A stretch of 64,000 bases of DNA from an uncultured Candidatus Saccharibacteria bacterium (GCA_964645245.1 CAZYBS010000002.1:18161-82160); one strand, 5' to 3'. Numbered from the stretch's first letter, positions 7,965-40,733 are shown. Notes: generated from the sequence alone by a model not told the origin. Program-made: numbers and translations.

Positions 7965-9941
7965 ATGGACTTGCCGGAAATACCCATAAATAAAGAAATC
8001 ACCTATCTCGGAATTACTACTTACAGGGACAAAAACCAGCTTTTTGGCATCAAGCGCAAAGACAGGCGCCAGCATGTTTATCTGTTGGGAAAGTCCGGTA
8101 CCGGTAAATCAGTGCTGATGTTCAACATGATTATCCAGAATATCCAAAATGGCGACGGGGTCTGCATGGTTGACCCGCATGGAGAAAATGTTGAAGCAAT
8201 TCTCTCCGCCATCCCGCCGCACCGCATGAAGGATGTGGTTTATTTCAATCCGGCCGATGCTGATTATCATATCGGCTTTAATGTATTGGAGCTGATTGAC
8301 CCGCAATACAAGCACTTGGTGGCTTCGGGACTGATGGGCATTTTTACTAAAATTTGGGCCAATGCCTGGAGCGCCCGAATGGAATATATTTTAAATAATG
8401 CAATTCTGGCTTTGCTGGATACGCCGGGCACGACGCTCCTGGGGATTCCTCGAATGCTGGTGGACAAAGATTATCGCCAGAAAATAATTTCCAATTTAAA
8501 GGACCCGGTCATCAAGGCTTTCTGGGTGCACGAATATGAAGCTTGGCAAGATAAATTCCGTAATGAAGCGATCGCCCCGATTCAGAATAAAGTCGGGCAG
8601 TTTCTTTCCACTTCCATCATCCGCAATGTCGTCGGTCAGTCCAAGAGCACGATTAATATCTTTGACATGATGAATGAGAGGAAAATTTTTCTGGTGAATG
8701 TTTCCAAGGGGCGCATCGGAGAGGACAACTCCGGCCTTTTGGGCGGCATGATTATTACCAAAATCCAGCTGGCCGCCATGGAACGCGTGCGTATTCCGGA
8801 AGAGTCCCGCACCGACTTTTATCTTTATGTGGATGAATTTCAGAATTTCGTGACCGATGCTTTTGCCGGCATTTTATCGGAGGCCAGAAAATACAGATTG
8901 AACCTGACGGTGGCTCACCAATATACCGCTCAACTTATTTCCGACAAAAGTTCCGCTGTACGCGATGCCGTCTTCGGTAATGTCGGTACAATGATTGTCT
9001 TTCGAACAGGCGCCGATGACGCGGAATTTCTGGAAAAAGAATTTGATCCGGAATTTACTCCGCAGGATATAGTGAACTTGCCCAACTATAAAGCTTATTT
9101 GAAATTAATGATCGATGGCGTAACATCCCGTCCTTTTTCCGCCAAAACTTTGCCACCGCTGGTAAAATCCGGCAATAAAGAGATTGAAGAAGAGGTAATA
9201 AAATCTTCTCGTATATTGTATTGTCGGCCGAGAGAGGTTGTGGAAAGGGAAATCAATGACTGGAGCGGAATGTCGCTGGGTGATGAAAATGCCCCAGGCG
9301 GTAGTATAGAAAAATTTCCAGCTGTCTGTTCAAGTTGCAAGAAAGAGACTACAGTTCCCTTCAAGCCGGAAAAAGGGCGTCCAGTTTACTGTAAAGAATG
9401 CATAGCCAGGATAAAGTCTGGTGAGATAAAAGTAGAAAAAGGGTCAGAAAATCAAATTAAACATGATGAAACTAAATTTTTCAAGCCGTTGGCTGATTTG
9501 GGTATAGAGTTTGAACAAAAAGATAGGGGTAGAATTAAAGAAGCAGAAAGATATCCCGAGAGAATTGATAAACATGGAATCATAGGGGCCGTGAAAAAAG
9601 TTTTTACCAAAAGTGAGATGCCAGTCCCAACCAAAGTCGAGATTCCTAAAAAACCCAAGGAAAATTTAGCATTAAGGGAAGTTTTAAATAAAATAAGTGA
9701 ACCAGTTTCGCTTGATACTTTAAAAAATAAGACCAAAGAAACTATATCCTCTAAGGATCGTGCCGCTAGCCCGGAAGATATGAGTAAGTTAAAAGACCTA
9801 ATTTTAGAAAAAGTTCCCGAAGCTAAAGAGGAGGAAAAGGAGGAGAAAGCCCCGACGCCCGCAGGGGTCGGGGTCCCGACTTCTAAGAGCGTCGGGACAA
9901 AAGAAGTGCCGGAAGACGTTTTGAGAAAAGTTTTGGAATAA
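7965..9941 (+). CDS. Soluble VirD4/TraG/TraD-superfamily P-loop ATPase (AAA_10 / T4CP-like) with a C-terminal Zn ribbon and Lys/Glu-rich tail, paralog A
   Basis: Walker A LLGKSGTGKS, DPHGE, Walker B FYLYVDEFQNF, and ARKYRLNLTVAHQYTAQL (TraG-D_C-like). There are no N-terminal TM helices. Residues ~455-478 read CSSCKKETTVPFKPEKGRPVYCKEC. Confidence 0.7.
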   Translation: MDLPEIPINKEITYLGITTYRDKNQLFGIKRKDRRQHVYLLGKSGTGKSVLMFNMIIQNIQNGDGVCMVDPHGENVEAILSAIPPHRMKDVVYFNPADADYHIGFNVLELIDPQYKHLVASGLMGIFTKIWANAWSARMEYILNNAILALLDTPGTTLLGIPRMLVDKDYRQKIISNLKDPVIKAFWVHEYEAWQDKFRNEAIAPIQNKVGQFLSTSIIRNVVGQSKSTINIFDMMNERKIFLVNVSKGRIGEDNSGLLGGMIITKIQLAAMERVRIPEESRTDFYLYVDEFQNFVTDAFAGILSEARKYRLNLTVAHQYTAQLISDKSSAVRDAVFGNVGTMIVFRTGADDAEFLEKEFDPEFTPQDIVNLPNYKAYLKLMIDGVTSRPFSAKTLPPLVKSGNKEIEEEVIKSSRILYCRPREVVEREINDWSGMSLGDENAPGGSIEKFPAVCSSCKKETTVPFKPEKGRPVYCKECIARIKSGEIKVEKGSENQIKHDETKFFKPLADLGIEFEQKDRGRIKEAERYPERIDKHGIIGAVKKVFTKSEMPVPTKVEIPKKPKENLALREVLNKISEPVSLDTLKNKTKETISSKDRAASPEDMSKLKDLILEKVPEAKEEEKEEKAPTPAGVGVPTSKSVGTKEVPEDVLRKVLE

Positions 9942-14904: not shown

Positions 14905-16407
14905 ATGCCAAAACCGGGTCGAGTGCAAATAATCAAATATGGTCCGCCGCCGCCGGAATTGCCGGTTTTTGGAAAGATAGACCCGACCGAGGTGTCTTTC
15001 ATCGGACGTACAAATTACGTTGCCGCATTAGAGGAGAAAAAGTTTATATTCGGCATCAAGCGCATAGACCGCCGCCGGCATCTTTATATTGTCGGCAAGT
15101 CCGGCGTTGGTAAAACCAAACTTCTGGAACTTCTTATCCGTCAAGATATAACCTATGGCCATGGATTATGCCTGATTGACCCGCACGGCGATGTGATGGA
15201 GGCAATACTGGACTATATACCCAAGGAACGCATAGAAGATGTTTGCATTATCAACCCGCCCGACGTTGATTTTCCGGCCTCTTTCAACCCATTGGCGAAT
15301 GTTGATCCGATGTTTAAGTTTCAATTGACTCAAGGGTTGATTGAAGTTTTCCAAAAACAATTCGGAGCCAACTGGACGCCCAGGCTGGAGCACGTTTTCC
15401 GCTTTACCTGTTTGGCCTTGCTGGATTATCCGCACGCGACGATGCGCGGCATGATTTCCATGCTGACCGACCGAAATTACCGGCAGAAGGTGGTGGAGTA
15501 TATTACCGACGATATGGTAAAAAGATTCTTCGCTATTGAATTCGCCGACTGGTCGGAGAAGTTTGACACCGATGCCATTATCCCGCTAGTTAACAAGCTC
15601 GGGCAATTCCTCTCCGACCCGCTCTTGCGCAATATCTTCGGCCAAAAGCAGAACAAGATAGACATCAGTAAGCTGATGAACGAGCAAAAGATTATTCTAA
15701 TTAATATCTCCAAAGGCCGTCTGGGAGAAGAAAATTCCTCTTTTCTTGGTTCTATCTTTCTGACTAAAATAAAACAAGCGGGTATGGAGCGCGCGGCTAT
15801 ACCAGAAAAAGACCGTACGGACTTTTATCTATACGTGGATGAGTTTCACAATGTCGTTACTCAGACCTTTGAAAACATTTTATCCGAGGCCAGAAAATAT
15901 GCTTTAAGTTTAACTATGGCCCATCAATATGTTGGTCAGGTTATTCCCCGAGTTCACCAAGCGGTACTTGGTAATTGCGGTAGTGTGATTACTTTTCGTA
16001 TTAGTGGTGAAGACGCAGTTAAAATGAAACCGGAATTTGCGCCTTTGTTTGACGTGAAGGATATGATCAATCTGGCTGTCGCGGAATTTTATATAAAAAT
16101 GACCATTGACGGTGAGTCCTATGACCCATTTTCGGCTGAAACACTTCGAGTTCTTCCCCCGACTCATCCCTCATACAGAGAAGAAATTATGGCGGCCTCT
16201 CGCCGGAAATATTCAATACCAAAAGACGACGCGGCCAAGCTTATTGCCGAGGAAGAGGCGACAATCATCCGAAGCGCCGAAGAGAAGGCAATTATCGAGA
16301 GCAAAGCTAAAAGAAAAGCAAAAGAAAAAGGAGAAGATAATGGCGAAGAAGATGAAAAAGAAAAACCTAAAGCAAAAGCTTCACAAGAAGCCGAACCCAT
16401 GATATAA
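14905..16407 (+). CDS. Soluble VirD4/TraG/TraD-superfamily P-loop ATPase, paralog B
   Basis: Walker A IVGKSGVGKT, DPHGD, Walker B FYLYVDEFHNV, and ARKYALSLTMAHQYVGQV. It is colinear with paralog A over the first ~400 aa and has a Lys/Glu-rich C-terminal tail. Confidence 0.7.
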   Translation: MPKPGRVQIIKYGPPPPELPVFGKIDPTEVSFIGRTNYVAALEEKKFIFGIKRIDRRRHLYIVGKSGVGKTKLLELLIRQDITYGHGLCLIDPHGDVMEAILDYIPKERIEDVCIINPPDVDFPASFNPLANVDPMFKFQLTQGLIEVFQKQFGANWTPRLEHVFRFTCLALLDYPHATMRGMISMLTDRNYRQKVVEYITDDMVKRFFAIEFADWSEKFDTDAIIPLVNKLGQFLSDPLLRNIFGQKQNKIDISKLMNEQKIILINISKGRLGEENSSFLGSIFLTKIKQAGMERAAIPEKDRTDFYLYVDEFHNVVTQTFENILSEARKYALSLTMAHQYVGQVIPRVHQAVLGNCGSVITFRISGEDAVKMKPEFAPLFDVKDMINLAVAEFYIKMTIDGESYDPFSAETLRVLPPTHPSYREEIMAASRRKYSIPKDDAAKLIAEEEATIIRSAEEKAIIESKAKRKAKEKGEDNGEEDEKEKPKAKASQEAEPMI

Positions 16408-28697: not shown

Positions 28698-28994
28698 ATG
28701 AAACATCTTAATAAAAAAATTCCAGAGTACAAACACGAACTAATTAAAGTTTTTTCCCAAATTTACGGTAATCAGAAATTAATGAATGAATTTCTAGTAG
28801 ATATTCTCACGCCAAATGAGTTTGAAGCTTTGGCTTTAAGGTGGCAAATAGTTAAAAAACTAAATAAAGGAGAGACCCATAGGTCTGTAGCAGGGGACTT
28901 AGGCTTAGGTATAAGTACTGTAAATCGTGGCTCTCGCGAACTTCGCAACAAAAACGGCGGTTTTCATCTAATGTTAAAGAAATTGGGTAAATAG
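28698..28994 (+). CDS. TrpR-like (YerC/YecD family) DNA-binding protein
   Basis: LTPNEFEALALRWQIVKKL...SVAGDLGLGISTVNRGSRELR, the family HTH signature. It is immediately downstream of trpS. Confidence 0.6.
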   Translation: MKHLNKKIPEYKHELIKVFSQIYGNQKLMNEFLVDILTPNEFEALALRWQIVKKLNKGETHRSVAGDLGLGISTVNRGSRELRNKNGGFHLMLKKLGK

Positions 28995-29043
28995 AGTTAT
29001 CCACAGACCATTTTTAAATGACCTTGCTTCCTCTTTTTTATAT

Positions 29044-29069
29044 GTTATCATGTACTAGTACATGATAAC
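29044..29069. promoter_or_regulatory. Perfect 26-bp palindrome GTTATCATGTACTAGTACATGATAAC with a trp-operator-like GTACTAGTAC core
   Basis: Read directly from the sequence. It is 50 bp downstream of the TrpR-like gene. Confidence 0.5.
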
Positions 29070-29104
29070 AATAGAAATCAACCAAATAGGTAAATCATGG
29101 TGGG

Positions 29105-29150
29105 GCGCAAAGCATCTAGCTTTTGCGTCGTTTTGTTGATTTCTTTTTCT
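29105..29150 (+). terminator. Rho-independent terminator after the trpS/trpR-like unit
   Basis: CGCAAAGC-ATCTA-GCTTTTGCG hairpin followed by TCGTTTTGTTGATTTCTTTTT. Confidence 0.6.
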
Positions 29151-29417
29151 ACCAAATAATAAGGAATCCATTAAGTGGCGCATGAGCGTCATTTTTTGTT
29201 CTTTGTTTTTTGGGGGATTATGAGAAAAAAAATCTTTGTCTGGCTGGAAGATTTTATCTTCTGGCTTGAACAGATCTTATTTAGAGTTCGCAAAGCTCTT
29301 TGGAAGATTGATGGCTTGGGCGGGGGTGAATAAAAAAACTTCTACCAACAAAGTTTGGGGGCGTCGCTTGTTCTACAAGCGGCGTCCATCAAATATTAAC
29401 AAAATAAAAATACGAAT

Positions 29418-29612
29418 ATGAAACATCAATTTATGTCAAGAATTAAATGCCTCATGCTCACTGGTCATAGAATGGGGAAATACCAGAGTAAAATAGTCAA
29501 TGGAGTGTACGGTAAAGTGGAGGCTCAAAAGACAAGGTGTGCAGATTGTCAATATGTTCAAAAGTATTGGGTCATAAAAGAAAAATTAAGACAATCAGTA
29601 AGATGCAATTAA
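29418..29612 (+). CDS. Small 4-Cys (putative zinc-ribbon) protein, cassette copy 1
   Basis: 64 aa with Cys at 11, 41, 44 and 63. Its paralog is at 37495..37686(-), and its stop is 1 nt from the next ATG. Confidence 0.55.
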   Translation: MKHQFMSRIKCLMLTGHRMGKYQSKIVNGVYGKVEAQKTRCADCQYVQKYWVIKEKLRQSVRCN

Positions 29613-29613
29613 G

Positions 29614-29799
29614 ATGAATTTATTAAAAGGAATTTTTGAACTATGTGTTGTATTGCCTACATTGATGCTAATTGATGGAGGTAAAAGGTGGTCAAAATAT
29701 TTAAACGAAGACGATCCATTGGAAGCTTTTCTCTGGACCTTGTTGGTAATATTAGTTTTTGCGTTGATTGTATTGTTAATAAATGGTTATGAATATTAA
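29614..29799 (+). CDS. Small 2-TM membrane protein, cassette copy 1
   Basis: 61 aa with two hydrophobic segments. Its paralog is at 37311..37493(-). Confidence 0.55.
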   Translation: MNLLKGIFELCVVLPTLMLIDGGKRWSKYLNEDDPLEAFLWTLLVILVFALIVLLINGYEY

Positions 29800-29814
29800 G
29801 TAAAATATAAATTT

Positions 29815-30504
29815 ATGAAAACATTAGGAATTATAGGTGGGCTTGGCCCTGTAACAACCTCTGAATTTTATTTGGAGTTAATTTTCTCATGTAAGAAAAT
29901 AAATAGAAAAAGTTATCCTCACATATTAATTAATAGTATTCCTCTGACTTTTGATATTGAAAGAGATGCAATTGCAGAAGGTGTAGGAGAAGAGAGATGT
30001 TTGCCTTATCTTCTTGATGCGGCGAAAAGCTTAGAAAGAGCCGGTGCTGACTTTTTAGTATTGCCATGCAATTCTTTACATGTATTTATTGGGGACATTC
30101 GAAGAACAGTTAAAATTCCTGTCATAAGTATTTTAGAAGAAACCTCTAAATTTCTTAAAAGGCAGAGGATAGATAAAGTTGGAATTATTGCAACTCCAAT
30201 AACTATTAGGAATAAATTATATGAGAAGTTTCTAAATAGAAGTGGTATTAGACAAATTATTCCCAATAACTTACAACAAGCAAAAATTGGCAAGTTGATC
30301 CATAACTTAGTGTCAGATAGATATAACAACAAAGATAGAGAGATATTGATAAAAATAATTAAAGATTTTGCTGAAGGAAAAATCAAACATATTATATTGG
30401 CTTGTACTGATCTTCAATTATTGATGCCTCAAAATAATGGAATTAAAATCTATGACACTATGAAAATTTTAGCTGATGCAACAATAAAAAATATCACTAG
30501 CTAA
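29815..30504 (+). CDS. Asp/Glu racemase family protein (aspartate racemase-like)
   Basis: N-terminal LGIIGGLGPVTTSEFY; 229 aa. Confidence 0.6.
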   Translation: MKTLGIIGGLGPVTTSEFYLELIFSCKKINRKSYPHILINSIPLTFDIERDAIAEGVGEERCLPYLLDAAKSLERAGADFLVLPCNSLHVFIGDIRRTVKIPVISILEETSKFLKRQRIDKVGIIATPITIRNKLYEKFLNRSGIRQIIPNNLQQAKIGKLIHNLVSDRYNNKDREILIKIIKDFAEGKIKHIILACTDLQLLMPQNNGIKIYDTMKILADATIKNITS

Positions 30505-30546
30505 ACTATACTGTTTTTCTTTTTTATTTTATGATAAAATGATTTC

Positions 30547-31863
30547 ATGAAAAATCGGATATATATTAAAGATTTAAAAGACAATGTCGGAAAAGAAGTA
30601 ACTATTGCCGGATGGGTAGATGTCAGGCGCGACCAGGGGAAAATGGTTTTTTTTGATATGCGGGATATGACGGGCAAGGTGCAGTGCATAGCTTTACCAA
30701 GCCGAACGGAAGTTATAGAAAGAGCGAAAGAAATAAGACCTGAGTGGGTTTTAAAAATTAGTGGTCTTGTGAACAAGCGTCCAGAAAAAAATGTAAAGGC
30801 TGGAGTTTTGAATGGCGATGTGGAACTGGAAGTGACGGGTATAGAAGTACTTAGTGAAGCAAAAGATTTACCATTTGAAAAAGATACAGAAGTTAATTTA
30901 GATACGCATTTGGATTATTTGCCATTGACCTTGCGCAGTGAGCGAGGTAAAGATATTTTCAAAGTGCAAGAGACAATAATTCAGGCATTTCGGGAGGCAC
31001 TGATAAAAGAAAATTTTACAGAATTTCAAGCGCCAGCGATTGTCGGTGGAGATGCCGAGGGAGGAGCAATGGCATTCAAGGTTAATTACTATAATGACAA
31101 AACGGCGTTTCTGGCTACCAGTCCGCAATTTTACAAACAGATTATGGCCGGCGTATACGAACGTGTATTCACTACGCCCAAAATTTTCCGCGGCGAAAAA
31201 CATGCCACGACCAGACATTTGAGCGAGATAACCCAAATGGATTTTGAAATGGCATTTATAAAAGACGAGAAAGATGTCATGGAAGTTTTGGAAAAGGTGA
31301 TAAGGTATGTAGTTGCGAAAGTTGCAGAAAGTCATTCTGAAGTTTTTTCCAGATTTAATACGGAAGTTCCTCTTGTGCCGGAAAAGTTTCCTATTTTGAC
31401 ATTGCGTGAAGCGCAAAAGATTCTGGAAGTGGCGGAGGACCCAGACTTAGAACCAGAGCAAGAACGCAATATCTGCGAGTGGGCAAAAAAAGAACACGGT
31501 TCGGATTTTGTTTTCATTACGCGTTTCCCGACCGCAAAACGAGCATTTTACACTTACGAAGAGCCTGGAGAAGCCCCATATTCTCGAGGTTTTGACCTCT
31601 TATTCCGCGGGTTTGAAATAAATAGCGGGAGCCAGCGCATACATAATTACGACACCATGATTGAAAAAATGAAAGAAAGGGGTCTAGATCCGGAAAAATT
31701 CAGTTTCTATTTGCAAACTTTCAAATACGGCATGCCACCGCACGGAGGGTGTTCTACCGGACTAGAGCGCCTGACTGCCCGGATGCTTGAACTGGCCAAT
31801 ATAAAAGAAGCGGCGCTCTTTCCTCGCGATATAAATCGTATTGACACAAGACTTTCGGAATAA
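30547..31863 (+). CDS. aspS: Aspartyl-tRNA synthetase, archaeal/type-2 class IIb (possibly non-discriminating)
   Basis: OB-fold N-terminus, TSPQFYKQ, FRGEKHATTRHLSE, C-terminal GMPPHGGCSTGLERL...FPRDINRIDTRL, and a 438 aa length. Confidence 0.8.
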   Translation: MKNRIYIKDLKDNVGKEVTIAGWVDVRRDQGKMVFFDMRDMTGKVQCIALPSRTEVIERAKEIRPEWVLKISGLVNKRPEKNVKAGVLNGDVELEVTGIEVLSEAKDLPFEKDTEVNLDTHLDYLPLTLRSERGKDIFKVQETIIQAFREALIKENFTEFQAPAIVGGDAEGGAMAFKVNYYNDKTAFLATSPQFYKQIMAGVYERVFTTPKIFRGEKHATTRHLSEITQMDFEMAFIKDEKDVMEVLEKVIRYVVAKVAESHSEVFSRFNTEVPLVPEKFPILTLREAQKILEVAEDPDLEPEQERNICEWAKKEHGSDFVFITRFPTAKRAFYTYEEPGEAPYSRGFDLLFRGFEINSGSQRIHNYDTMIEKMKERGLDPEKFSFYLQTFKYGMPPHGGCSTGLERLTARMLELANIKEAALFPRDINRIDTRLSE

Positions 31864-31871
31864 AATTTCAG

Positions 31872-32237
31872 ATGAGCTACATAATTTCTGGCAGAGTTAT
31901 CAAAGGAGATGGTTACGGAAAGGAGATTGGTTTTCCGACGATAAATATAGACAGAAAAAATTTTTTAAATTTGAAACAGAGACCAGTTTTTGGAGTATAC
32001 GCTGGTCAGGTGAAGCTATCTGGTAAAATTTACAAAGCAGGAATAATCATTGGACCATTGGATAAACGCAGATTACCCAAAGTGGAAGCTCATTTAGTTG
32101 GCTATAAAGGTAATGCTCATGGCAAAAAAGCAATTTTTGAAATAAAAAAGTTTTTAAGAAAATTTGAAAAATTCAAAACAGATAAAGAGCTTATAGCACA
32201 AATTAAAAAAGATTTAAAAAAACTTGTCCCGTACTAA
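31872..32237 (+). CDS. Riboflavin kinase (flavokinase domain only)
   Basis: GRVIKGDGYGKEIGFPTINI. Confidence 0.8.
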   Translation: MSYIISGRVIKGDGYGKEIGFPTINIDRKNFLNLKQRPVFGVYAGQVKLSGKIYKAGIIIGPLDKRRLPKVEAHLVGYKGNAHGKKAIFEIKKFLRKFEKFKTDKELIAQIKKDLKKLVPY

Positions 32238-32293
32238 ATTTTTGATTACGTGTTATTATGATAAATATTAGTAAATAAAATTTTAGTACTGGG

Positions 32294-32866
32294 ATGTTCA
32301 CAGGCATAATTTCCAAAACCGCAAAAGTAAAAAAAGTAAATGCTAAAAGGGGTAGTTTTTCCATTGAAATTATTAATAATTTAAGAAAAGTAGAATTAGG
32401 AGAAAGTATTGCTGTAAACGGCGTCTGCTCCACTGTCAAGAGGTCAGGTAAAAATATCCATTTTGAATATATGCCGGAAACTTTAAAGCTTTCCAATTTA
32501 GGTTTTCTAAAGAAAGGTGATACAGTGAACGTTGAGCGATCAATGCGTTTAGGCGATAGGCTAGATGGGCATATAGTGCTTGGACATATTGATGAGAAAG
32601 GCGAAATTCTTAATATAACAAAAGAGAGAAATTCACGAGTATTCAACATAAAAGTACCGGACAGAAAGTTCTACAAGTTTTTATTTTATAAGGGGTCAGT
32701 CACAGTAGAAGGTATTAGTTTAACAGTGGCTAAAGTTTTTAAAAATTCTTTTGTTGTGAAGATTATTCCATATACTCTCAAACATACGAATTTAAAACAA
32801 AAGAAGAAAGGTAATTATGTGAATTTAGAGTTTGATATACTTGCCAAATATGCAAATCAAAAGTAA
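32294..32866 (+). CDS. ribE: Riboflavin synthase alpha subunit
   Basis: MFTGIIS... N-terminus and two lumazine-binding repeats. Confidence 0.85.
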   Translation: MFTGIISKTAKVKKVNAKRGSFSIEIINNLRKVELGESIAVNGVCSTVKRSGKNIHFEYMPETLKLSNLGFLKKGDTVNVERSMRLGDRLDGHIVLGHIDEKGEILNITKERNSRVFNIKVPDRKFYKFLFYKGSVTVEGISLTVAKVFKNSFVVKIIPYTLKHTNLKQKKKGNYVNLEFDILAKYANQK

Positions 32867-33323
32867 AACATACAAATATTTAAATGGAGAAAAGTTGAAG
32901 GTTGGTATTGTCGTGGCTAGATGGAATAATGAAATTACGGATGAGCTTTTAAAATCTGCATTGCTGATGTTGAAGAAAAACAAACTTAGCGAAGAAAAAA
33001 TAAAAATAGTGTCTGTCGCTGGTTCAGTGGAAATTCCTTTTGCTCTGCACAAGCTTGCACAATCCAAAAAACCTGCCCGACCAGGCGGTCGTTCGGGCGG
33101 GTATGATTTTTTGGTCGCTCTTGGGTGCATTATCAAAGGCAAGACTCCACATTTTGATTACGTTGCCAAAATGGTGCAAGAGGGTGTTTTAAAAGTTATG
33201 ATTGAAGATAATATGCCCGTCGGTTTCGGAGTGCTGACTGTGGATAACACCAAACAAGCAAGAGAGAGAACTCATGTTGGCGGAGAAGCCGCTTTTGCCG
33301 CACTCGAACTTGCTTTAATATAA
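32832..33323 (+). CDS. ribH: 6,7-dimethyl-8-ribityllumazine synthase
   Basis: [24 protein letters not shown] lies 5 nt upstream of the 32832 ATG. Confidence 0.88.
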
Positions 33324-33325
33324 AT

Positions 33326-34561
33326 ATGAAAAAGAATAAAAAAACTGAATTTAAATTAAATAAAATAGAAGATACTATTTTGGACATAAAATCTGGCAAG
33401 GTTGTAATCGTCGTGGATGACGCAAATCGGGAAAATGAAGGAGATTTTGTCGCAGCCGCAAGGAGTATAACTCCCGAAATAATAAATTTTGTGACGACTT
33501 ATGGGCGGGGGCTCCTATGTGTGTCCATCACGGAAGACAGGTGTAAAGAGCTTGAGCTTCCGATGATGACTTCTAAAAATACCTCTTTTCACTCTACATC
33601 TTTTACCGTTTCCGTGGATTTACTGGGCCATGGCTGCACTACTGGTATTTCCGCTCATGATCGGGCAAAAACAGTGCAGGCCCTAATTGACCCTTCTACC
33701 AAACCTGAAGATCTTGGCCGCCCCGGGCATGTTTTTCCCATTCAGGCGATGAATGGAGGAGTTTTAAGAAGAGCCGGGCATACGGAAGCAGCGGTGGATT
33801 TGGCGCGCTTAGCGGGAGTGGAACCGGCGGGCATTTTGGTTGAAATTATGAATAAAGACGGTACGATGGCTCGTTTGCCTGATTTAATGAAAATAGCGAA
33901 AAAATTTAATTTAAAGATTGTCAGCATAGAAGACCTGATTAGCTACAGATTAAAAAACGAAACTTTAATTAAAAGAGAAGTGCAGGTAAAACTCCCGTCG
34001 GAATGGGGCGATTTTGACTTATACGCTTATAGACGCACAGATACGGACGAAGAGCATTTGGCACTGGTAAAAGGAAAATGGGACAAAGACGAGCCTGTTT
34101 TGGTGCGTGTTCATTCTTCTTGTATTACCGGAGATGTTTTTGGTTCACTTCGCTGTGATTGCGGACCTCAACTTCATAGAGCTATGGAGCTAATAAATAC
34201 TCTGGGTAAGGGCGTGATTGTGTATATGAATCAAGAAGGCAGAGGGATAGGTCTTTTAAATAAGTTAAAAGCCTACAAGCTCCAAGAAAATGGTCTGGAT
34301 ACGGTGGAGGCGAATTTAAAACTCGGCTTTAAAATGGACGAACGGGATTATGGCATCGGAGCGCAGATTTTGCGGGATTTAGGTGTCTCTAAAATGCGGC
34401 TTTTGACCAACAATCCGAAAAAGCGCGCCGGACTTGTGGGCTATGGTCTGGAAATAGTGGAAAATATTCCCATAGAAATAAAATCAAATAGACACAACGA
34501 GCGATACCTCTTGACTAAACGCGATAAAATGGGCCACTTTTTTAATTTGGATGAGCTTTAA
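33326..34561 (+). CDS. ribBA: Bifunctional DHBP synthase / GTP cyclohydrolase II
   Basis: NRENEGDFV (RibB) and [20 protein letters not shown] (RibA). Confidence 0.92.
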
Positions 34562-34573
34562 AATTCCAAATTA

Positions 34574-35620
34574 TTATCTATTCACATAAGTCTGCAATTT
34601 ATCAGACCCGATTTTTTCCACTTTGGTCGGGCGTAGATTTATAACGGGCGCCTTGACGCCAGTCTTTATTTTTTTATTGGCCGTAAAGACGCGCATCTCA
34701 TCCCATAGATTATTTTTTATAAGGCTGTTCAGAAGTTGCGCTCCGCCTTCAATCATGACGGATTGGATTTTTCTTTTATAAAGCTCATTTAAAATTTGCG
34801 GAAGTATATTTTGCTTAAAATTAATTTTTACAAATTCCAAATTATGTTCCGAAACAGCGCTCCCGACTGTAAAGATTATAGTCGGCGTGCTTTTATCCAA
34901 TAAATTAAATTGCTTCGGTATTTTCAAATCTCGGTCTATTGCGATGCGCAGCGGATTTTTTCCTTTTACTTCGCGCGTTGTCAGATGCGGATTATCCAGC
35001 AGCGCTGTATTGGTGCCGACCATAATGGCCTGTGTTTGGCTTCTCAATTTATGCGTTAATATTTTATCCTGTTGATTGCTTATTGGTATTGCTTTTTTTG
35101 CGTTGTAAATATCGCGCTTGGCGTCAATAAAATGATCAGCAGTTTGAGCCCATTTTAAAATAACGTAAGGGCGTTTTTTTTCATGATAAGTAAAAAATTC
35201 TTTATTAAGTGTTCCACATTTGTTTTGGAGCACATTTACCCTTACATCAATGCCGGCTTTTTTTAGTTTTTTGATTCCTTGTCCGTTTACTTTTGCCGAA
35301 GCATCAATACAACCGATTACGACATATGGAATTTTGTGTTTAATGATTAAATCTGCGCAAGGCGGTGTTTTTCCAAAATGGGAACATGGCTCTAAATTTA
35401 CATACAGAGTGGCCCTTTTTAATAATTTTTTATCCAAAACCGAATTAATTGCATTAACTTCCGCATGGGCGCCCCCGTATTGCCGGTGATATCCAGCACC
35501 GATTATTTTATCATCAACCACAATCACGCTGCCCACCATTGGGTTGGGAGCCACTTTCCCTAAACCCTTTATCGCCAGCTTTAGGCAGCGCTCCATGTAT
35601 TTTTCATTTTTTGACGGCAT
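34574..35620 (-). CDS. ribD: Riboflavin biosynthesis deaminase/reductase RibD
   Basis: CMP/dCMP deaminase Zn motif HAEVNAI...PCSHFGKTPPCA plus a C-terminal reductase domain. Confidence 0.9.
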   Translation of the reverse strand: MPSKNEKYMERCLKLAIKGLGKVAPNPMVGSVIVVDDKIIGAGYHRQYGGAHAEVNAINSVLDKKLLKRATLYVNLEPCSHFGKTPPCADLIIKHKIPYVVIGCIDASAKVNGQGIKKLKKAGIDVRVNVLQNKCGTLNKEFFTYHEKKRPYVILKWAQTADHFIDAKRDIYNAKKAIPISNQQDKILTHKLRSQTQAIMVGTNTALLDNPHLTTREVKGKNPLRIAIDRDLKIPKQFNLLDKSTPTIIFTVGSAVSEHNLEFVKINFKQNILPQILNELYKRKIQSVMIEGGAQLLNSLIKNNLWDEMRVFTANKKIKTGVKAPVINLRPTKVEKIGSDKLQTYVNR

Positions 35621-35692
35621 ATATTTAATGATAAATTATATCATAGCTCTAAAAATCTATGTTTTCAACGATTTTTCAGGTATAATGTGTGA

Positions 35693-36028
35693 ATGTCCAA
35701 AAACGATTTATTAAAGAAAAAATGCGTGCCATGCGAAGGGGGAGTGAAGCCCTTGAGCCTAGAAGAGGCTAAAGACTATTTAGATGAAATTCCGGGCTGG
35801 ACTCTAAATGGGGAAGGCAAAAAAATCTCCAAAACTTTCAAATTTGCCGATTTCATCGGGGCGATAAATTTTGTGGAGCGCGTGGCCGACGTGGCCGAAA
35901 TGGAAAACCATCATCCCGATATTCACATCCATTATAACAAAGTCTTGCTGGAGCTCTGGACTCATGCCATCGGCGGACTTTCCGAAAATGACTTTATTGT
36001 TGCTGCGAAAATTGATGCGCGTAAATAA
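35693..36028 (+). CDS. Pterin-4a-carbinolamine dehydratase
   Basis: EMENHHPDIHIHYNKVLLELWTH. Confidence 0.85.
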   Translation: MSKNDLLKKKCVPCEGGVKPLSLEEAKDYLDEIPGWTLNGEGKKISKTFKFADFIGAINFVERVADVAEMENHHPDIHIHYNKVLLELWTHAIGGLSENDFIVAAKIDARK

Positions 36029-36037
36029 AATTTACAT

Positions 36038-36070
36038 ATCTCTAATTCGCGCGAATAGGCGAATAGTTAT
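36038..36070. repeat. Intergenic repeat R1 (ATCTCTAATTCGCGCGAATAGGCGAATAGTTAT) containing the palindrome ATTCGCGCGAAT; copy 1 of 3
   Basis: Related copies are at 40734..40766 and 47190..47257. Confidence 0.6.
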
Positions 36071-36118
36071 CTGATTAAAGTATTCTAATATTCTATAGAA
36101 TTGTAGAATGGAAATATT

Positions 36119-36159
36119 AAAGGGACGGATTGTCGTTTGACAAATCCGTCCCTTTGCGT
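36119..36159 (-). terminator. 12-bp perfect hairpin AAAGGGACGGAT-N13-ATCCGTCCCTTT, likely the terminator of the minus-strand GNAT unit
   Basis: Read directly; on the minus strand it is followed by TTTAATATTT. Confidence 0.5.
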
Positions 36160-36189
36160 TGGCCAGCGCGATGTCGGCCTTTTATCCGT

Positions 36190-36270
36190 TTACTTCTTCG
36201 GTTTGGGTGGTTCGGGAGCCTTCGGTGGTTGTGGTTTTGTGTCCTCGTCGTCTGGGCTCATGTAATACAT
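36190..36270 (-). CDS. Possible 26-aa Pro/Lys-rich peptide (MYYMSPDDEDTKPQPPKAPEPPKPKK) with a perfect SD
   Basis: AAAGGAGA lies 7 nt upstream of the ATG on the minus strand, inside the GC-rich island between the GNAT gene and the hairpin. Confidence 0.2.
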   Translation of the reverse strand: MYYMSPDDEDTKPQPPKAPEPPKPKK

Positions 36271-36331
36271 GGCTTTTATCTCCTTTCAATCAGATCCAAT
36301 CCGAAGGTATTGGTAACGGTAGCTTTCCTTT

Positions 36332-36976
36332 TTACTTTTCTTCGGACTCTAGTGGTGGAACGAGTCTATAAGCATCACGATACAGCTTATAGAGTAGCTC
36401 AACCGAGTCGCGCCTATAGTAGATTCCATCCACGTTTGCGCGAATCGCCCCCGGCAGGATCCCGACGGAGCGGAATCCTAGCTTGTGGAACAACTTGAGT
36501 GTCACCGTGTGGAAACGAGCCACAGATACGGTGGCAAGTTCAGCGCCGGATTCCTCAGCGTAGCGATCGAGAATCTTTGTCGCCGTAGTTGCCGATAGAC
36601 GTCCCCTGAAATCCGGGTGGACTACACCTAGCGTAAAATCCACTGAGAGATTCAGAGAATCCGTGCGCAAGAGTGCAGAACCAGCGATATGCCCTTCTGA
36701 CGTTTCAAGCGCGAAAACCTCATGTCCTTCCATCGGAAGGTTGCCGTACCACTCAGGTTCCAGAAGGAACCCGAACGTACCTCGATAGAGTTCCGGGAAT
36801 CCTTTTGCCCATACGTCAGCTAGCGTTTCCGCTGTCTCCCTGCTTACGTTGTTGAGTCGCTTGATTGTAGATCCGCGCCCCAAGGATTGTGGATCGAACG
36901 TGGTCCAATTCCACCGCCCTTCCTCCCATGGTTTTACTGGCGTATTGTACAGTTTAAAGTTTCTTCCCAGTTCCAT
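36332..36976 (-). CDS. GNAT-family acetyltransferase-like protein (GC-rich island)
   Basis: VHPDFRGRLSATTATKIL...FHKLGFRSVG resembles GNAT motif A. The start is assigned to the internal Met (MELGRN...) preceded by AAAGGAGA; the ORF extends to 37045. Confidence 0.5.
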   Translation of the reverse strand: MELGRNFKLYNTPVKPWEEGRWNWTTFDPQSLGRGSTIKRLNNVSRETAETLADVWAKGFPELYRGTFGFLLEPEWYGNLPMEGHEVFALETSEGHIAGSALLRTDSLNLSVDFTLGVVHPDFRGRLSATTATKILDRYAEESGAELATVSVARFHTVTLKLFHKLGFRSVGILPGAIRANVDGIYYRRDSVELLYKLYRDAYRLVPPLESEEK

Positions 36977-37268
36977 AGCTTCTCCTTTCAAAGAACAGAT
37001 TTGTCGTCTCGGAACATCCGAGCATACATGAAAGAACAAAAACACCAGCCGAGAGGGCTGGTGTTTGAGTTGTAAGTTGAGTTTTAGTTTTTTTACAGCG
37101 CAAATATCAGCCTTCTAATGGAAAGCTGGTAATAAGCATTTAATATTGAAGTATTTCTTTGTTGTTGAATATTACTATTCATATTTCGCATACTAGCATG
37201 TTTTGATAAAAAGCGCAAGCGAATTTGTAGAAGTCATAATTCCGCTTATACTATCTACTTCACTCAAT

Positions 37269-37293
37269 TAAAGTACTTTAGTTAAGTAAAGTA
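37269..37293. promoter_or_regulatory. Repeat R2 (TAAAGTACTTTAGTTAAGTAAAGTA), same as the putative operator at 40681..40705
   Basis: 24 of 25 nt are identical to the 40681 copy, and it contains TAAAGTA/TACTTTA half-sites. Confidence 0.45.
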
Positions 37294-37310
37294 ATGGATA
37301 TAAATAATAT

Positions 37311-37493
37311 TTATCTATAGCCCATTAATAAAAGTATAATTAATACACAAACTAATATTATTAATAAGGTCCACAAAAAAGCATTCCAAGGGTCTTCTTC
37401 ATTTAAATATTTTGACCATTTCTTACTTCCATCGATTAATATCAGTATTGGTAGCTGAATACATAAAAAGAAAATTGGTTCAAAAACTCCCAT
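37311..37493 (-). CDS. Small 2-TM membrane protein, cassette copy 2
   Basis: Paralog of 29614..29799 (LPILILIDGSKKWSKYLNEEDP...). Confidence 0.55.
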   Translation of the reverse strand: MGVFEPIFFLCIQLPILILIDGSKKWSKYLNEEDPWNAFLWTLLIILVCVLIILLLMGYR

Positions 37494-37494
37494 G

Positions 37495-37686
37495 TTAGTT
37501 GCACCTTACTGGTGATCTTAGCTTTTCTTTGGCGACCCAAAATTTTTCAATATAAAAACAGTTCACGCATCTTGTTCTTTGCGCTTCGACTTTGCCATAG
37601 ACTCCGTTTACCATCTTGGTTTGGTATTTTTTCATTTTGTGGCTGGTCAATAGGCAGCATTTAATTCTTAAAATTATTTTATTCAT
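37495..37686 (-). CDS. Small 4-Cys protein, cassette copy 2
   Basis: Paralog of 29418..29612 (KMVNGVYGKVEAQRTRCVNC...VRCN). Confidence 0.55.
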   Translation of the reverse strand: MNKIILRIKCCLLTSHKMKKYQTKMVNGVYGKVEAQRTRCVNCFYIEKFWVAKEKLRSPVRCN

Positions 37687-37761
37687 GGCTTTGTAAGTAA
37701 TAAAAATTTTTGGAGGAAGGGAAGGGTGATGTGCCCAACCCTTCCGCCAATGTATCTATCT

Positions 37762-38817
37762 CTATCTACTGGCTGTGATTACCGTCAGGATGCTTTCGCG
37801 CTTACCGCACCGCTGGAGGTTCCTTGCCAGTTCTGTTGCAGCTAGAAAGTTGGCACCCGCAGAGCTTGCTCCGTCGATACCAAAGGTCTTCAGTAGCCGA
37901 ACACCTTCTCTCGCTTCTTTGTCCGTAACGATACGAACTTGTTCTACGCTTGGCAGATGGTCAAGAACAAGCCTCGTCGGATCCCCGACGCCCAAACCTT
38001 CAATACCGATAACCTTTGATACTACTCGCGGGAAGTCGATATTGATGTCGAACCAGTTCTCCGGACTTCTTTGTGGATGGCAGCTGAGCGAAACTATCAT
38101 CCCCGCAGTTTCGTATGCCCGGAGGGCTTTTTCGACAGCTCTCTTTTTGACCTCGTACTTGTCTCTGGCACGCAAGTAGGCATGCCAGAGAGTTAAGGTT
38201 GAACCCACCCCTTCAACGGCTATGATTCGGGTATGAGGATTCACTTCGCGCAACGCCAATCCAATTCCGAAGAGGGTACCACCCGTGCCGACCCCAGCCA
38301 CGAGGTGGCTAGGTGCCCCGAGTCGTTCCACGATAGCCCTCCCGAATGTTCGTTTCTGGATATCGAGGATGACCGGCTGCTCGTGCTGTTCGAGCAACAT
38401 GTATCCTCTCTTCCGGCAGAGCTTTTTTGCCGTGGTGAGGCGACCGGTTCGGCCTTCGCGACGCGGGGTTTCCATAACCACTTCAATACCCATCGTCTTG
38501 AGTTTCTCGACGACGGGCCGACTGGTTTCGACGTATACAACCGCGGTGACCCCGACTCTGACCCCGAGTTCGTCTACGGCAAGTTTTACACCTTGTACGG
38601 TGTTTCCTCCGCCGACAACGACTACGGATCGAGTTGTATCCTTGATCTTCCCGGTGTCAAGGTAGTGCGCTAGCAGGCACTTGCCGATGGAGGTTTTGAC
38701 TCCAGCCGGCAATGTGTCGGCCCGAAAGAGAACAATTTTTTGTCCATGCCTTTTGGTGGTGCACAAAGGGACAGACAAAGCCCTTTCGTACTCTCTCTGT
38801 ACTGTCTCTTTGTACAC
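37762..38817 (-). CDS. PLP-dependent cysteine synthase / CBS-like (fold type II) enzyme, GC-rich; GTG start
   Basis: GVGTGGTLFGIG glycine loop and VVVGGGNTVQG. The start codon is GTG, 5 nt after AAAGGAGG. Confidence 0.6.
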   Translation of the reverse strand: MYKETVQREYERALSVPLCTTKRHGQKIVLFRADTLPAGVKTSIGKCLLAHYLDTGKIKDTTRSVVVVGGGNTVQGVKLAVDELGVRVGVTAVVYVETSRPVVEKLKTMGIEVVMETPRREGRTGRLTTAKKLCRKRGYMLLEQHEQPVILDIQKRTFGRAIVERLGAPSHLVAGVGTGGTLFGIGLALREVNPHTRIIAVEGVGSTLTLWHAYLRARDKYEVKKRAVEKALRAYETAGMIVSLSCHPQRSPENWFDINIDFPRVVSKVIGIEGLGVGDPTRLVLDHLPSVEQVRIVTDKEAREGVRLLKTFGIDGASSAGANFLAATELARNLQRCGKRESILTVITASR

Positions 38818-39047: not shown

Positions 39048-40208
39048 CTACACATATCTACGATCTACTTTTTCCGGGATACGACTCAAAAACTCATAAT
39101 TATTCTGTTTTATGCTCCTGCAGATTTCTTCCAGTTTTATTTCTTTTCCTTTTTGTTTTCCTAAAATAACAACCTCGTCGCCGGCCTTGATGGTTTTTTT
39201 GCTACCGATGTTCACAAAACAATTTGTCATGTTAATTCCGCCGACCAACGGATATTTAACTCCGCCAATTATTACTTTCCCTCCATTTACAAGCCGAGAG
39301 TCAAGGCCATAGGAGTAACCAGGAAGAAGAATAGCAATTCGAGTTTTCCGTTTGGCAATAAACTTTCTTCGATAAAATATGCCCTCACCCTTTTCAAGCT
39401 CTTTAATGCAGGCAATTATGGTTTTGAAAGAAACTACAGGAAACAGGTCTATTGTGCTTTTTCGTCTAGCTTCTAGTGAGGGATAAAAGCCAAAAAGTGA
39501 AATGCCAAGACGCACCATATCGAGAAGGGATTCCGAGAAAAGAAAAGCAGCTTCACTTGAAGCGATGCTCCATAAAGGAATTTTGATTTTCTCTTTTTGA
39601 CAACTTTCTTTAATCGCTATGAAGCGTTTAAATTGGATCTTGTCGAACTTTTTTTCTTCTGTAAAACTACTCAAGACACCTTCGATTTTTATGTTTTTCG
39701 ACTGCGAAACAGCACGTATAAATTTCAAAGCATCTTGATATGGCACACCAAGACGTCCTAAGCCAGTATCAATTTTTATCCACACTCCGCTTCTCATCTT
39801 GAGTTTTCTAGATACACTCTCAAAATTTCTAAGCATGGTATAGGTAAAAATAGTAGGATTAATTTGATTTTTTACGAGCTTTTCCCCATCTTCAAAACTA
39901 TATATTCCGAGGTTCACGATTGGCTTTGTAATTCCACCTTTTCTTAAAGTTATTGCTTCCTTTATTCCCACAACACCAAATACATCTATATATTTTTGAA
40001 GGGTATTGGACACACCCAAAACCCCCAAGCCATATGCATTTGCTTTCAACACCGCCATTATTTTACTTGGTTTGGTTATTCGTTTCATTTGGGCAATGTT
40101 TTTCAACAGATTTGCCTTATTAATTTCTATCCAAACTAATGGTTTTTTAATTTTTCTTTCACTATTTACAATTCTCATTTTTTTATTTTTTAAATTTCTA
40201 ATAAACAA
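39048..40208 (-). CDS. alr: Alanine racemase
   Basis: AVLKANAYGLGV PLP-Lys motif; 386 aa. Confidence 0.85.
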   Translation of the reverse strand: MFIRNLKNKKMRIVNSERKIKKPLVWIEINKANLLKNIAQMKRITKPSKIMAVLKANAYGLGVLGVSNTLQKYIDVFGVVGIKEAITLRKGGITKPIVNLGIYSFEDGEKLVKNQINPTIFTYTMLRNFESVSRKLKMRSGVWIKIDTGLGRLGVPYQDALKFIRAVSQSKNIKIEGVLSSFTEEKKFDKIQFKRFIAIKESCQKEKIKIPLWSIASSEAAFLFSESLLDMVRLGISLFGFYPSLEARRKSTIDLFPVVSFKTIIACIKELEKGEGIFYRRKFIAKRKTRIAILLPGYSYGLDSRLVNGGKVIIGGVKYPLVGGINMTNCFVNIGSKKTIKAGDEVVILGKQKGKEIKLEEICRSIKQNNYEFLSRIPEKVDRRYV

Positions 40209-40254: not shown

Positions 40255-40662
40255 TTACGAGCTTAAAGATAACCCACGCCTAAGTTTAGGTGAGTTGTGG
40301 TGATGTGAAGAGACATTAGAAAGGCGAGCGAGGATTAACCTGTACCCGCCGAGCGAGCCGTAGAGCCACTTTGCGATGCGGGCAATGGTGGCGGAAGAGA
40401 GACCGGTAGATTCACTGATTGCATTATATTGCACGTCATTGGCAAGGAGCCGGGCGGCTTCAAATCTGTTTGTGAATTCTTTGATTTCCGCCGGTGTCAT
40501 CAAATCGCGAAGAAAACGCTTGGTCTCATCGGCATTTTTGAGCTCCAAAATTCCAGCAATTAATTGCCTGTTTTCCTTAGTATTCCAGTCCATATCCGGG
40601 CCAATTTCTTGTATTAGCCGTACGGTTCTTATGGATGTATTTTTATTCATTCCTTTACTCAT
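40255..40662 (-). CDS. TrpR-like (YerC/YecD family) DNA-binding protein, paralog 2
   Basis: MTPAEIKEFTNRFEAARLL...AISESTGLSSATIARIAKWL. Confidence 0.6.
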   Translation of the reverse strand: MSKGMNKNTSIRTVRLIQEIGPDMDWNTKENRQLIAGILELKNADETKRFLRDLMTPAEIKEFTNRFEAARLLANDVQYNAISESTGLSSATIARIAKWLYGSLGGYRLILARLSNVSSHHHNSPKLRRGLSLSS

Positions 40663-40666
40663 ACAG

Positions 40667-40706
40667 CTACTTTAGCAGACTAAAGTACTTTAGTCAAGTA
40701 AAGTAG
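40667..40706. promoter_or_regulatory. Nested palindrome CTACTTTAGCAGACTAAAGTACTTTAGTCAAGTAAAGTAG (includes the 14-bp perfect palindrome CTAAAGTACTTTAG) 5 nt upstream of the TrpR-like start
   Basis: Read directly; it is made of TAAAGTA half-sites. Confidence 0.5.
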
Positions 40707-40733
40707 CTAGGGGAGGTGTGGATAACTTATTAT

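Follow-up and report, generated by a model that had tools for sequence, protein, structure and literature searches.

We begin by considering a pair of small genes that occurs twice, in opposite orientations, in a 64,000-nucleotide stretch of DNA from an uncultured Candidatus Saccharibacteria bacterium (hereafter the window, which is part of a 212.6-kb ENA contig). The first gene of the pair, A, encodes a small cysteine-containing protein and the second, B, a predicted membrane hairpin; the two copies in the window are called W1 (copy 1) and W2 (copy 2). The four open reading frames (ORFs) are the following.

29418-29612, plus strand: A1, 64 amino acids (aa), copy 1, a basic protein, zinc-ribbon-like by prediction
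29614-29799, plus strand: B1, 61 aa, copy 1, an acidic membrane protein predicted to form a helical hairpin
37495-37686, minus strand: A2, 63 aa, copy 2, paralogue of A1
37311-37493, minus strand: B2, 60 aa, copy 2, paralogue of B1

The original prediction for this DNA had placed two inverted copies of a two-gene cassette at just these positions, bracketing about 7.5 kb and about 65% identical in protein, and had judged the duplication to be old. The ORFs are found as described and enclose an interval of 7,511 bp, and in both copies a single nucleotide separates the stop of A from the start of B. A1 and A2 share 65% protein identity (BLASTP, E 3e-32) and B1 and B2 share 63% (E 4e-20), and every motif that had been named (IKC, TRCxxC, VRCN, (I/M)VNGVYGKVEAQ and K(R/K)WSKYLNE(D/E)DP) is present. 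A tblastn search of the window returns exactly two copies of the pair. Their DNA is 71% identical across 375 nt, with a longest exact shared run of 17 nt, and the likeness is limited to the two coding regions; the flanks are not alike. The great age of the duplication is borne out by the synonymous sites, which are saturated between A1 and A2 (proportion of synonymous differences, pS, 0.82) and strongly diverged between B1 and B2 (synonymous divergence, dS, 1.2), with a non-synonymous divergence (dN) of about 0.2 between the window copies. Against orthologues, the dN/dS ratio lies between 0.06 and 0.43 across both genes (0.09-0.36 for A1; 0.10 for A2 and 0.12 for B2 against the related locus L020). 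The identity of the copies, their synonymous divergence and the low dN/dS against orthologues together establish A and B as genuine, old protein-coding genes under purifying selection. The A2 protein is also identical to a protein (P0007) on an independent Logan contig, L011. The cassettes are ancient paralogues of a lineage-restricted two-gene unit for which there is no earlier description.

The distribution of this unit is remarkably restricted. Word-index searches of 5.8 billion protein clusters return five clusters for A and four for B, and a search of all 1.84 billion representative proteins with a hidden Markov model built on the A profile returns five proteins in total. No true member carrying the B motif is found in 185,579 species-representative genomes (GTDB), even with the degenerate pattern LNExDPxxAFLW included; the sole match in that scan, in Loktanella, is a false positive. 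The B motif is not found in 2.9 million viral contigs either, and phage and plasmid records hold no match to the pair. Neither protein matches a Pfam, NCBIfam, PADLOC or PDB sequence entry. A scan of PHROG matches no holin or toxin family: its only match is weak (E 8e-4, phrog_2993, a family of unknown function), and for B it gives nothing better than E >= 0.18, again to families of unknown function. A search of the literature yielded no account of a small-protein pair of this kind. All carriers are metagenome contigs from groundwater or sediment, sources that would fit a probable origin in the Candidate Phyla Radiation, and lineage-specific small proteins are frequent in uncultured groundwater bacteria. 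The family is extremely narrow and vertically inherited. The proteins fall in no described family; their building blocks, a zinc-ribbon-like and a hairpin mini-protein, are familiar ones.

Loss of the pair, or of its reading frames, in other genomes had been named beforehand as the observation that would speak against the cassette. In all related loci both are kept. B begins 0-3 nt after A in every locus that reaches past the stop of A, and the translational coupling suggested for the pair is judged plausible because this gap is conserved. The pair is retained even in distant relatives, including L021 (A of 70 aa and B of 62 aa, about 35% identity) and L023 and L025 (A of 67 aa and B of 47 aa, with about 43% identity for L023). 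In two loci (L001 and L006) A is missed or called in the wrong frame by one gene caller, and the pair is nonetheless present. In a neighbour-joining tree of concatenated A and B, the copies linked to racemase or aspS genes (W1, L001, L005, L010 and L019) form a clade with 100% bootstrap support. W2 and L020 fall outside this copy-1 clade, and 70% bootstrap support places W2 nearer to it. Synteny makes W2 and L020 positional orthologues, though the tree leaves their sister relation unsettled.

Protein A is strongly basic, with an isoelectric point (pI) of 10.0 and 14-15 Lys and Arg residues vs 3 Asp and Glu. Eight of its residues (C11, M19, K25, V27, A36, C41, C44 and W51) are invariant among ten family members, and H17 is conserved with a single replacement, by Cys in the protein P0013, a swap that would be expected for a metal ligand. 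Four conserved cysteines had been proposed for A, and this count has to be revised: at the Cys of the VRCN motif, six of the nine other members that have the C-terminus carry Tyr, and the Cys is kept only in the window copies and L021, and the conserved ligand-like set is C11/H17/C41/C44. Within this set the spacing C41-x2-C44 is invariant while the first pair is atypical (C11-x4-5-H17, with Cys in place of His in P0013). The AlphaFold2 model of A, computed from an alignment of five sequences with a predicted local distance difference test (pLDDT) score of 70, has a helix at residues 2-13 and strands at 19-29, 32-41 and 47-53. Its best structural neighbours, none of them significant, include A100 and the N-terminal zinc ribbon of NrdR, to which the resemblance is weak. 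The suggestion that A binds zinc fares better than the cysteine count, since A is rated as probably metal-binding from its conserved residues; according to the model, A probably holds one zinc ion via Cys11, His17, Cys41 and Cys44 in a zinc-ribbon-like fold of one helix and three strands.

Among known zinc proteins, the ZAS anti-sigma factors (H-x3-C-x2-C) have in common with A a Cys/His/Cys/Cys set that includes a C-x2-C, and some of their members are membrane-tethered. They differ in that A has Gln37 rather than His four residues before the CxxC, and in that A is predicted to be rich in beta-strands whereas the ZAS domain is helical; A has no match to the Pfam family zf-HC2, and there is no sigma factor gene among the annotated genes neighbouring the pair. 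The agreement with the ligand numbering of RsrA (C11, C41, C44) is a coincidence, as A has neither the H-x3-C motif nor the helical fold.

Protein B is acidic (pI 4.4-4.9). Two hydrophobic helices had been expected in it, and the AlphaFold2 model (pLDDT 72) does predict a helical hairpin, with helices at residues 2-31 and 35-60. The expectation holds fully for the second helix only, which is strongly hydrophobic; the first is moderately so, and is shortened in the 47-aa variant of L023. The invariant residues of B (W26, L30-N31-E32, P35 and A38-F39-L40-W41) lie in or beside the polar segment that connects the helices, and the most conserved stretch of the protein is this polar loop, W-x3-LNE-x2-P-x2-AFLW, rather than the hydrophobic segments.

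We turn to the surroundings of copy 1, where the window has the order trpS, TrpR-family gene, a leader of about 420 nt, A1, B1, Asp/Glu-type racemase and aspS. The features of this region are as follows.

28698-28994, plus strand: TrpR-family repressor gene, 98 aa, after trpS (PF01371, E 8e-17)
29043-29070, no strand assigned: perfect 28-bp palindrome with GTACTAGTAC, TrpR-operator-like (repeat search; L005 and L010 have CTAG-repeat operators at this place)
29095-29200, plus strand: conserved leader with two hairpin/U-run elements at 29104-29129 and 29173-29194 (comparison with relatives)
29353-29394, plus strand: GC-rich hairpin ending about 25 nt 5' of the A1 start (repeat search; RNA fold -26.5 kcal/mol, z -7.2)
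29815-30504, plus strand: Asp/Glu-type amino-acid racemase, 15 nt 3' of B1 (PF01177, E 2e-34; TIGR00035, E 6e-49)
30547-31863, plus strand: aspS, aspartyl-tRNA synthetase of the non-discriminating/archaeal type (NF003483, E 1.5e-141)

In relatives the order is trpS, trpR, racemase, A, B and aspS, and L010 adds a DTD2-like deacylase before the racemase. In the L001 and L005 lineages the stop of the racemase overlaps the start of A as ATGA. The order A-B-aspS is shared by L001, L005 and L014 and recurs in the distant L021. Since the window has A-B-racemase and the relatives have racemase-A-B, the linkage of the three genes has outlasted a change of gene order. With a TrpR-family gene and a palindromic, CTAG-containing operator-like site at the promoter, which we take to resemble the E. 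coli trp operator, the context of copy 1 would fit a TrpR-regulated operon. In L019 (93-362) only 89 aa are left of the Asp/Glu racemase that precedes A-B, with both A and B intact; the pair can therefore outlive the decay of the adjacent racemase, which counts weakly against a strict dependence on it.

Copy 2 lies in a different cluster, ordered on the minus strand as YerC/YecD-type regulator, alanine racemase (alr), PALP, A2, B2 and GNAT-like gene. Here PALP stands for a divergent fold-type II pyridoxal-phosphate (PLP) enzyme. The features of this region, in the direction of transcription, are the following.

40665-40708, no strand assigned: 44-bp palindrome 5' of the YerC-like gene, with TACTTTAGTCAAGTAAAGTA core, overlapping a promoter-like site
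40255-40662, minus strand: YerC/YecD-type TrpR-related regulator, head of the cluster (TIGR02531, E 3.5e-18)
39048-40208, minus strand: alanine racemase, called as 376 aa, 5' of PALP (TIGR00492, E 5.5e-87)
37762-38817, minus strand: PALP, 351 aa, 54% GC, directly 5' of A2 (PF00291, E 6e-29)
37710-37750, minus strand: GC-rich hairpin between the PALP stop and the A2 start (repeat search; RNA fold -26.2 kcal/mol, z -4.5)
37256-37293, no strand assigned: second palindrome of the same type, 18-55 nt past the B2 stop, with 25 nt that are 96% identical to 40681-40705
36332-36976, minus strand: GNAT-like gene, 214 aa, 3' of copy 2 (weak PF13673/PF00583)

For PALP, the scores against subfamilies are weak only. 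The order of alr before PALP is also found in L011, L028, L029 and L032. Of these, L028, a 42.7-kb contig from a different species, has YerC-like gene, alr, PALP, A and B in the same order as the window, with identities of 84% for Alr, 79% for PALP and 76% for the YerC-like protein. Its pair and pcd converge, and after the pair come EamA, flavokinase and aspS, encoded on the opposite strand, which is the layout of the window from copy 2; the GNAT-like gene is not part of this layout. This shared layout indicates that copy 2 is a conserved positional orthologue and not a recent insertion. Beside the aspS of L028 there is neither a racemase nor a second pair.

The two contexts look alike, each with a racemase and a regulator related to TrpR. 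The TrpR protein of copy 1 and the YerC-like protein have no detectable BLAST similarity, so the duplication included no regulator. The two racemases are non-homologous, with unrelated folds (PF01177 vs PF01168/PF00842). With dissimilar regulators and unrelated racemase folds, the parallel contexts are not the residue of one larger duplication. The original prediction had also noted a TrpR-family palindrome near each copy. There is indeed a palindrome at both; these are of two operator types, and they belong to the neighbouring regulators and not to the cassette. For the palindrome at 37256-37293, the likely user is the next gene, because the site lies 3' of B2 and is followed by a hairpin-plus-terminator leader and then by the GNAT-like gene; it is probably the operator of that gene and not of A2-B2.

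Wherever A does not overlap its upstream gene, a GC-rich hairpin of great stability (-26 to -45 kcal/mol, z -4 to -7) lies 15-40 nt before the A start. In relatives such hairpins are found at L022 1188-1220, L023 160-200 and L028 9930-9965. They are followed by an A-rich spacer rather than a U-run. Those of L023 and L028 are alike (74% over 86 nt); their reading as domain V/VI of a group II intron was dropped, having no Rfam support.

Combining the properties of the two proteins with the gene contexts, we arrive at a model of the A-B unit. A and B would be produced in fixed proportion, with B probably translationally coupled to A, and would form a membrane-anchored heterocomplex in which the basic A docks on the acidic loop of B. 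The complex would serve as an accessory or regulatory subunit that is co-expressed with amino-acid racemases: copy 1 inside a TrpR-operator-controlled operon of the form (DTD2)-Asp/Glu racemase-A-B-aspS, and copy 2 after the alanine racemase and the divergent PLP enzyme, behind the YerC/TrpR-like regulator. Its function would be the handling of D-amino acids at the membrane, for example by coupling their supply to cell-wall precursor use, to export or to sensing. The data show that A and B are coding genes conserved as a pair, and they show the ligand pattern, the predicted folds, the operon contexts and the narrow distribution; that A binds zinc, that A and B form a complex, how B lies in the membrane and what the pair does for D-amino acids are inferred from these. 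Contact via the loop of B is suggested by the charge complementarity of the proteins and by the location of the conserved residues. A link to D-amino acids is suggested by the two non-homologous racemases, the ATGA coupling and the linkage that survives rearrangement, and further by L028, where both the racemase and copy 1 are missing, and by the DTD2 and aspS neighbours. The overall picture, in which A and B are the two subunits of an accessory complex that is anchored in the membrane and connected with the metabolism of D-amino acids, has, in our estimate, an even chance of being right. A specific role of A-B in D-amino-acid metabolism, read from gene context, is put forward as tentative and rather doubtful. 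The fullest version, a new two-subunit membrane device in which a zinc-ribbon subunit sits on a hairpin, tethers or regulates racemases or exports or senses their D-amino-acid products, and has been recruited twice, once by the operon of the Asp/Glu racemase and once by that of the alanine racemase, we consider unlikely.

Several points weigh against this model. The contexts all come from one narrow lineage and amount effectively to two independent racemase contexts plus L021, L022 and L023. The upstream genes of L021 and L022 have no recognisable racemase domain: the proteins encoded 5' of A (a 125-aa fragment in L021 and 372 aa in L022) match no Pfam, NCBIfam or PDB entry and have no similarity to window genes, and an ATP-grasp-like look of the L022 protein is unsupported. 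Between PALP and the copy-2 pair lie 75-155 nt and a strong hairpin. The operons of compact genomes mix unrelated genes. The models of A and B are only moderately confident and were made from five sequences, and a 60-aa hairpin protein with a small partner also resembles a membrane toxin with its antidote.

The alternatives can be weighed on the same evidence. The racemase neighbourhood may be inherited synteny and nothing else, with A-B either a lineage-specific small membrane complex (it could be, for instance, an accessory subunit of another membrane machine) or two independent proteins, in both cases unrelated to D-amino acids. That every locus belongs to one narrow clade with a common gene order fits this account, as do the lack of a recognisable racemase beside the pair in L021, L022 and L023 and the fact that EamA, flavokinase and pcd also stay near the pair in relatives. 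It is harder to reconcile with two paralogues flanked by two non-homologous racemases, with a racemase-A-B linkage that outlives a change of order and includes an ATGA overlap, and with L028, which is without the Asp racemase and the copy-1 pair together; we hold it to be unlikely. In another account A is a membrane-tethered nucleic-acid-binding regulator that B sequesters at or releases from the membrane, its targets possibly being the operon leader or the strong hairpins that precede the A gene itself. The pI of 10 with 14-15 Lys and Arg residues, the zinc-ribbon-like fold, whose weak structural neighbours NrdR and A100 bind DNA, and the very stable hairpins (z -4 to -7) before each free-standing A gene speak for such a regulator, which we nevertheless regard as decidedly unlikely.

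A toxin-antitoxin or holin-like module, to which the original prediction had likened the pair, would make B a membrane-damaging peptide and A its neutraliser, loosely like GhoS/GhoT. The two genes are small, tightly coupled and co-oriented, the soluble protein comes first and the hydrophobic hairpin second, and there are two copies per genome; GhoS/GhoT-type pairs likewise encode, within one operon, a small soluble protein and then a membrane hairpin of about 60 aa. A-B differs from those pairs in being non-homologous to them, not mobile, narrow in distribution and located in operons of racemases and aminoacyl-tRNA synthetases, and in the polar loop of B, which is better conserved than the hydrophobic segments. 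No toxin, antitoxin, holin or defence model was matched (Pfam, NCBIfam, PADLOC and the PHROG holins included), the pair is not on the phages, plasmids and viral contigs searched, and the family is very narrow and vertical in its synteny where such families are usually patchy and mobile. It sits in housekeeping operons, even with the ATGA overlap with a racemase, and no lysis or phage genes are nearby, the neighbours being trpR, racemases, aspS, PALP and the GNAT-like gene. Such a module therefore finds no favour in the data, and we judge it very improbable. Least credible of all is an inversion of the 7.5-kb rib/aspS segment by recombination between the two copies. These are inverted and do bracket this segment, as the original prediction had noted; at 71% identity and with a longest exact run of 17 nt they fall short of the roughly 20-30 bp of perfect identity that RecA-dependent exchange generally needs, and none of the genes called from 19 to 44 kb encodes a recombinase. 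The junctions in the ENA contig are identical to those in Logan contigs assembled independently from that sample, and L028 keeps the same relative layout around the position of copy 2, so that one layout is found in two assemblies and in a different species. The inverted arrangement has no evident significance for genome dynamics.

Returning to the accessory-complex model, B would have functional analogues in small proteins of the AcrZ, KdpF, MgtS and DltX type, which have about 60 aa and are encoded within the operon of the pathway they serve. The conserved polar loop and the dedicated soluble zinc-ribbon partner set B apart from these, and the likeness would be one of function only. If the link to racemases is true, the pair would be a small-protein partner in the metabolism of D-amino acids and cell-wall precursors of a groundwater lineage that is poorly understood, and would illustrate that very small genes missed or misframed by a gene caller can be conserved parts of operons. 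As the evidence stands, it is a well-supported orphan family of narrow distribution that is useful for the correction of annotations and a candidate for small-protein studies.

Some further observations concern the regions next to the two copies. The window (28995-29200), L005 (1505-1700) and L010 (2558-2800) have a conserved leader in common after trpR. It contains a perfect DnaA-box-like TTATCCACA at 28997-29005, and its palindrome in L005 and L010 is ACTAGT-N2-ACTAGT. The hairpin/U-run elements are followed by a Shine-Dalgarno-like AAGGAAT and then by the start of a short ORF (MAHERHF...). No Rfam family matches this leader, and its reading as a T-box likewise has no Rfam support; a small RNA, a leader peptide and an attenuator are all candidate readings of it.

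On the other side of the pair, aspS is a mosaic (compared in the window, 30547-31863; L014, 1355-2749; L021, 808-2193; and L028, 12870-14219). Comparing the window with L014, identity is 80% in the first 95 residues, which form the anticodon-binding OB fold, and only 32% in the remainder, and the core is of the archaeal/non-discriminating type in the window and L028 and of the bacterial type in L014 and L021. This suggests a replacement at the level of domains just 3' of the cassette. Exactly between B and aspS, L014 carries a 446-nt GC-rich insertion with a terminator-like hairpin (886-1331), which is also found in L001, L002, L003, L004, L038, L041 and L043 and not in the otherwise collinear L005 lineage. 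The insertion (L001, L014) has no Rfam match and could represent either a small mobile element or the gene of a structured RNA.

In the copy-2 cluster, the GC content of PALP (54%) and of the GNAT-like gene (about 50%) is far above the 39% average of the window and the 31-35% of adjacent genes. The bias of PALP is seen in L028 too (8787-9845), and the GC richness of the two genes points to an old horizontal acquisition or to strong compositional selection. The GNAT-like gene is preceded by a conserved leader of about 100 nt (approximately 37031-37128, minus strand), which consists of a hairpin CAGCTTTC..GAAGGCTG, then TGCGCTGTAAAAA, a linker and a terminator AAACACCAGCC..GGCTGGTGTTT. The same element is present in L019 (900-1000) and twice in L028 (16795-16866 and 17138-17237), and in other genomes it sits 5' of tiny ORFs such as MYTYGGPDDEGYY. 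It corresponds to no Rfam family, with just a weak match to NrrF (E 0.04), and looks riboswitch- or leader-like.

Between the two copies, the window has ribE, ribH, ribBA and ribD at 31872-35620, where relatives have a flavokinase and then an EamA/DMT transporter (L001 3347-4572, L028 11643-12880). It looks as if riboflavin import in the relatives has been replaced by biosynthesis in the window; no FMN riboswitch is detected in the window. Farther away, two genes for VirD4/TraD-like coupling proteins (7965-9941 and 14905-16407, one of them with a CxxC-x17-CxxC domain) may be a sign of a conjugation-like or type IV secretion system in another part of the window.

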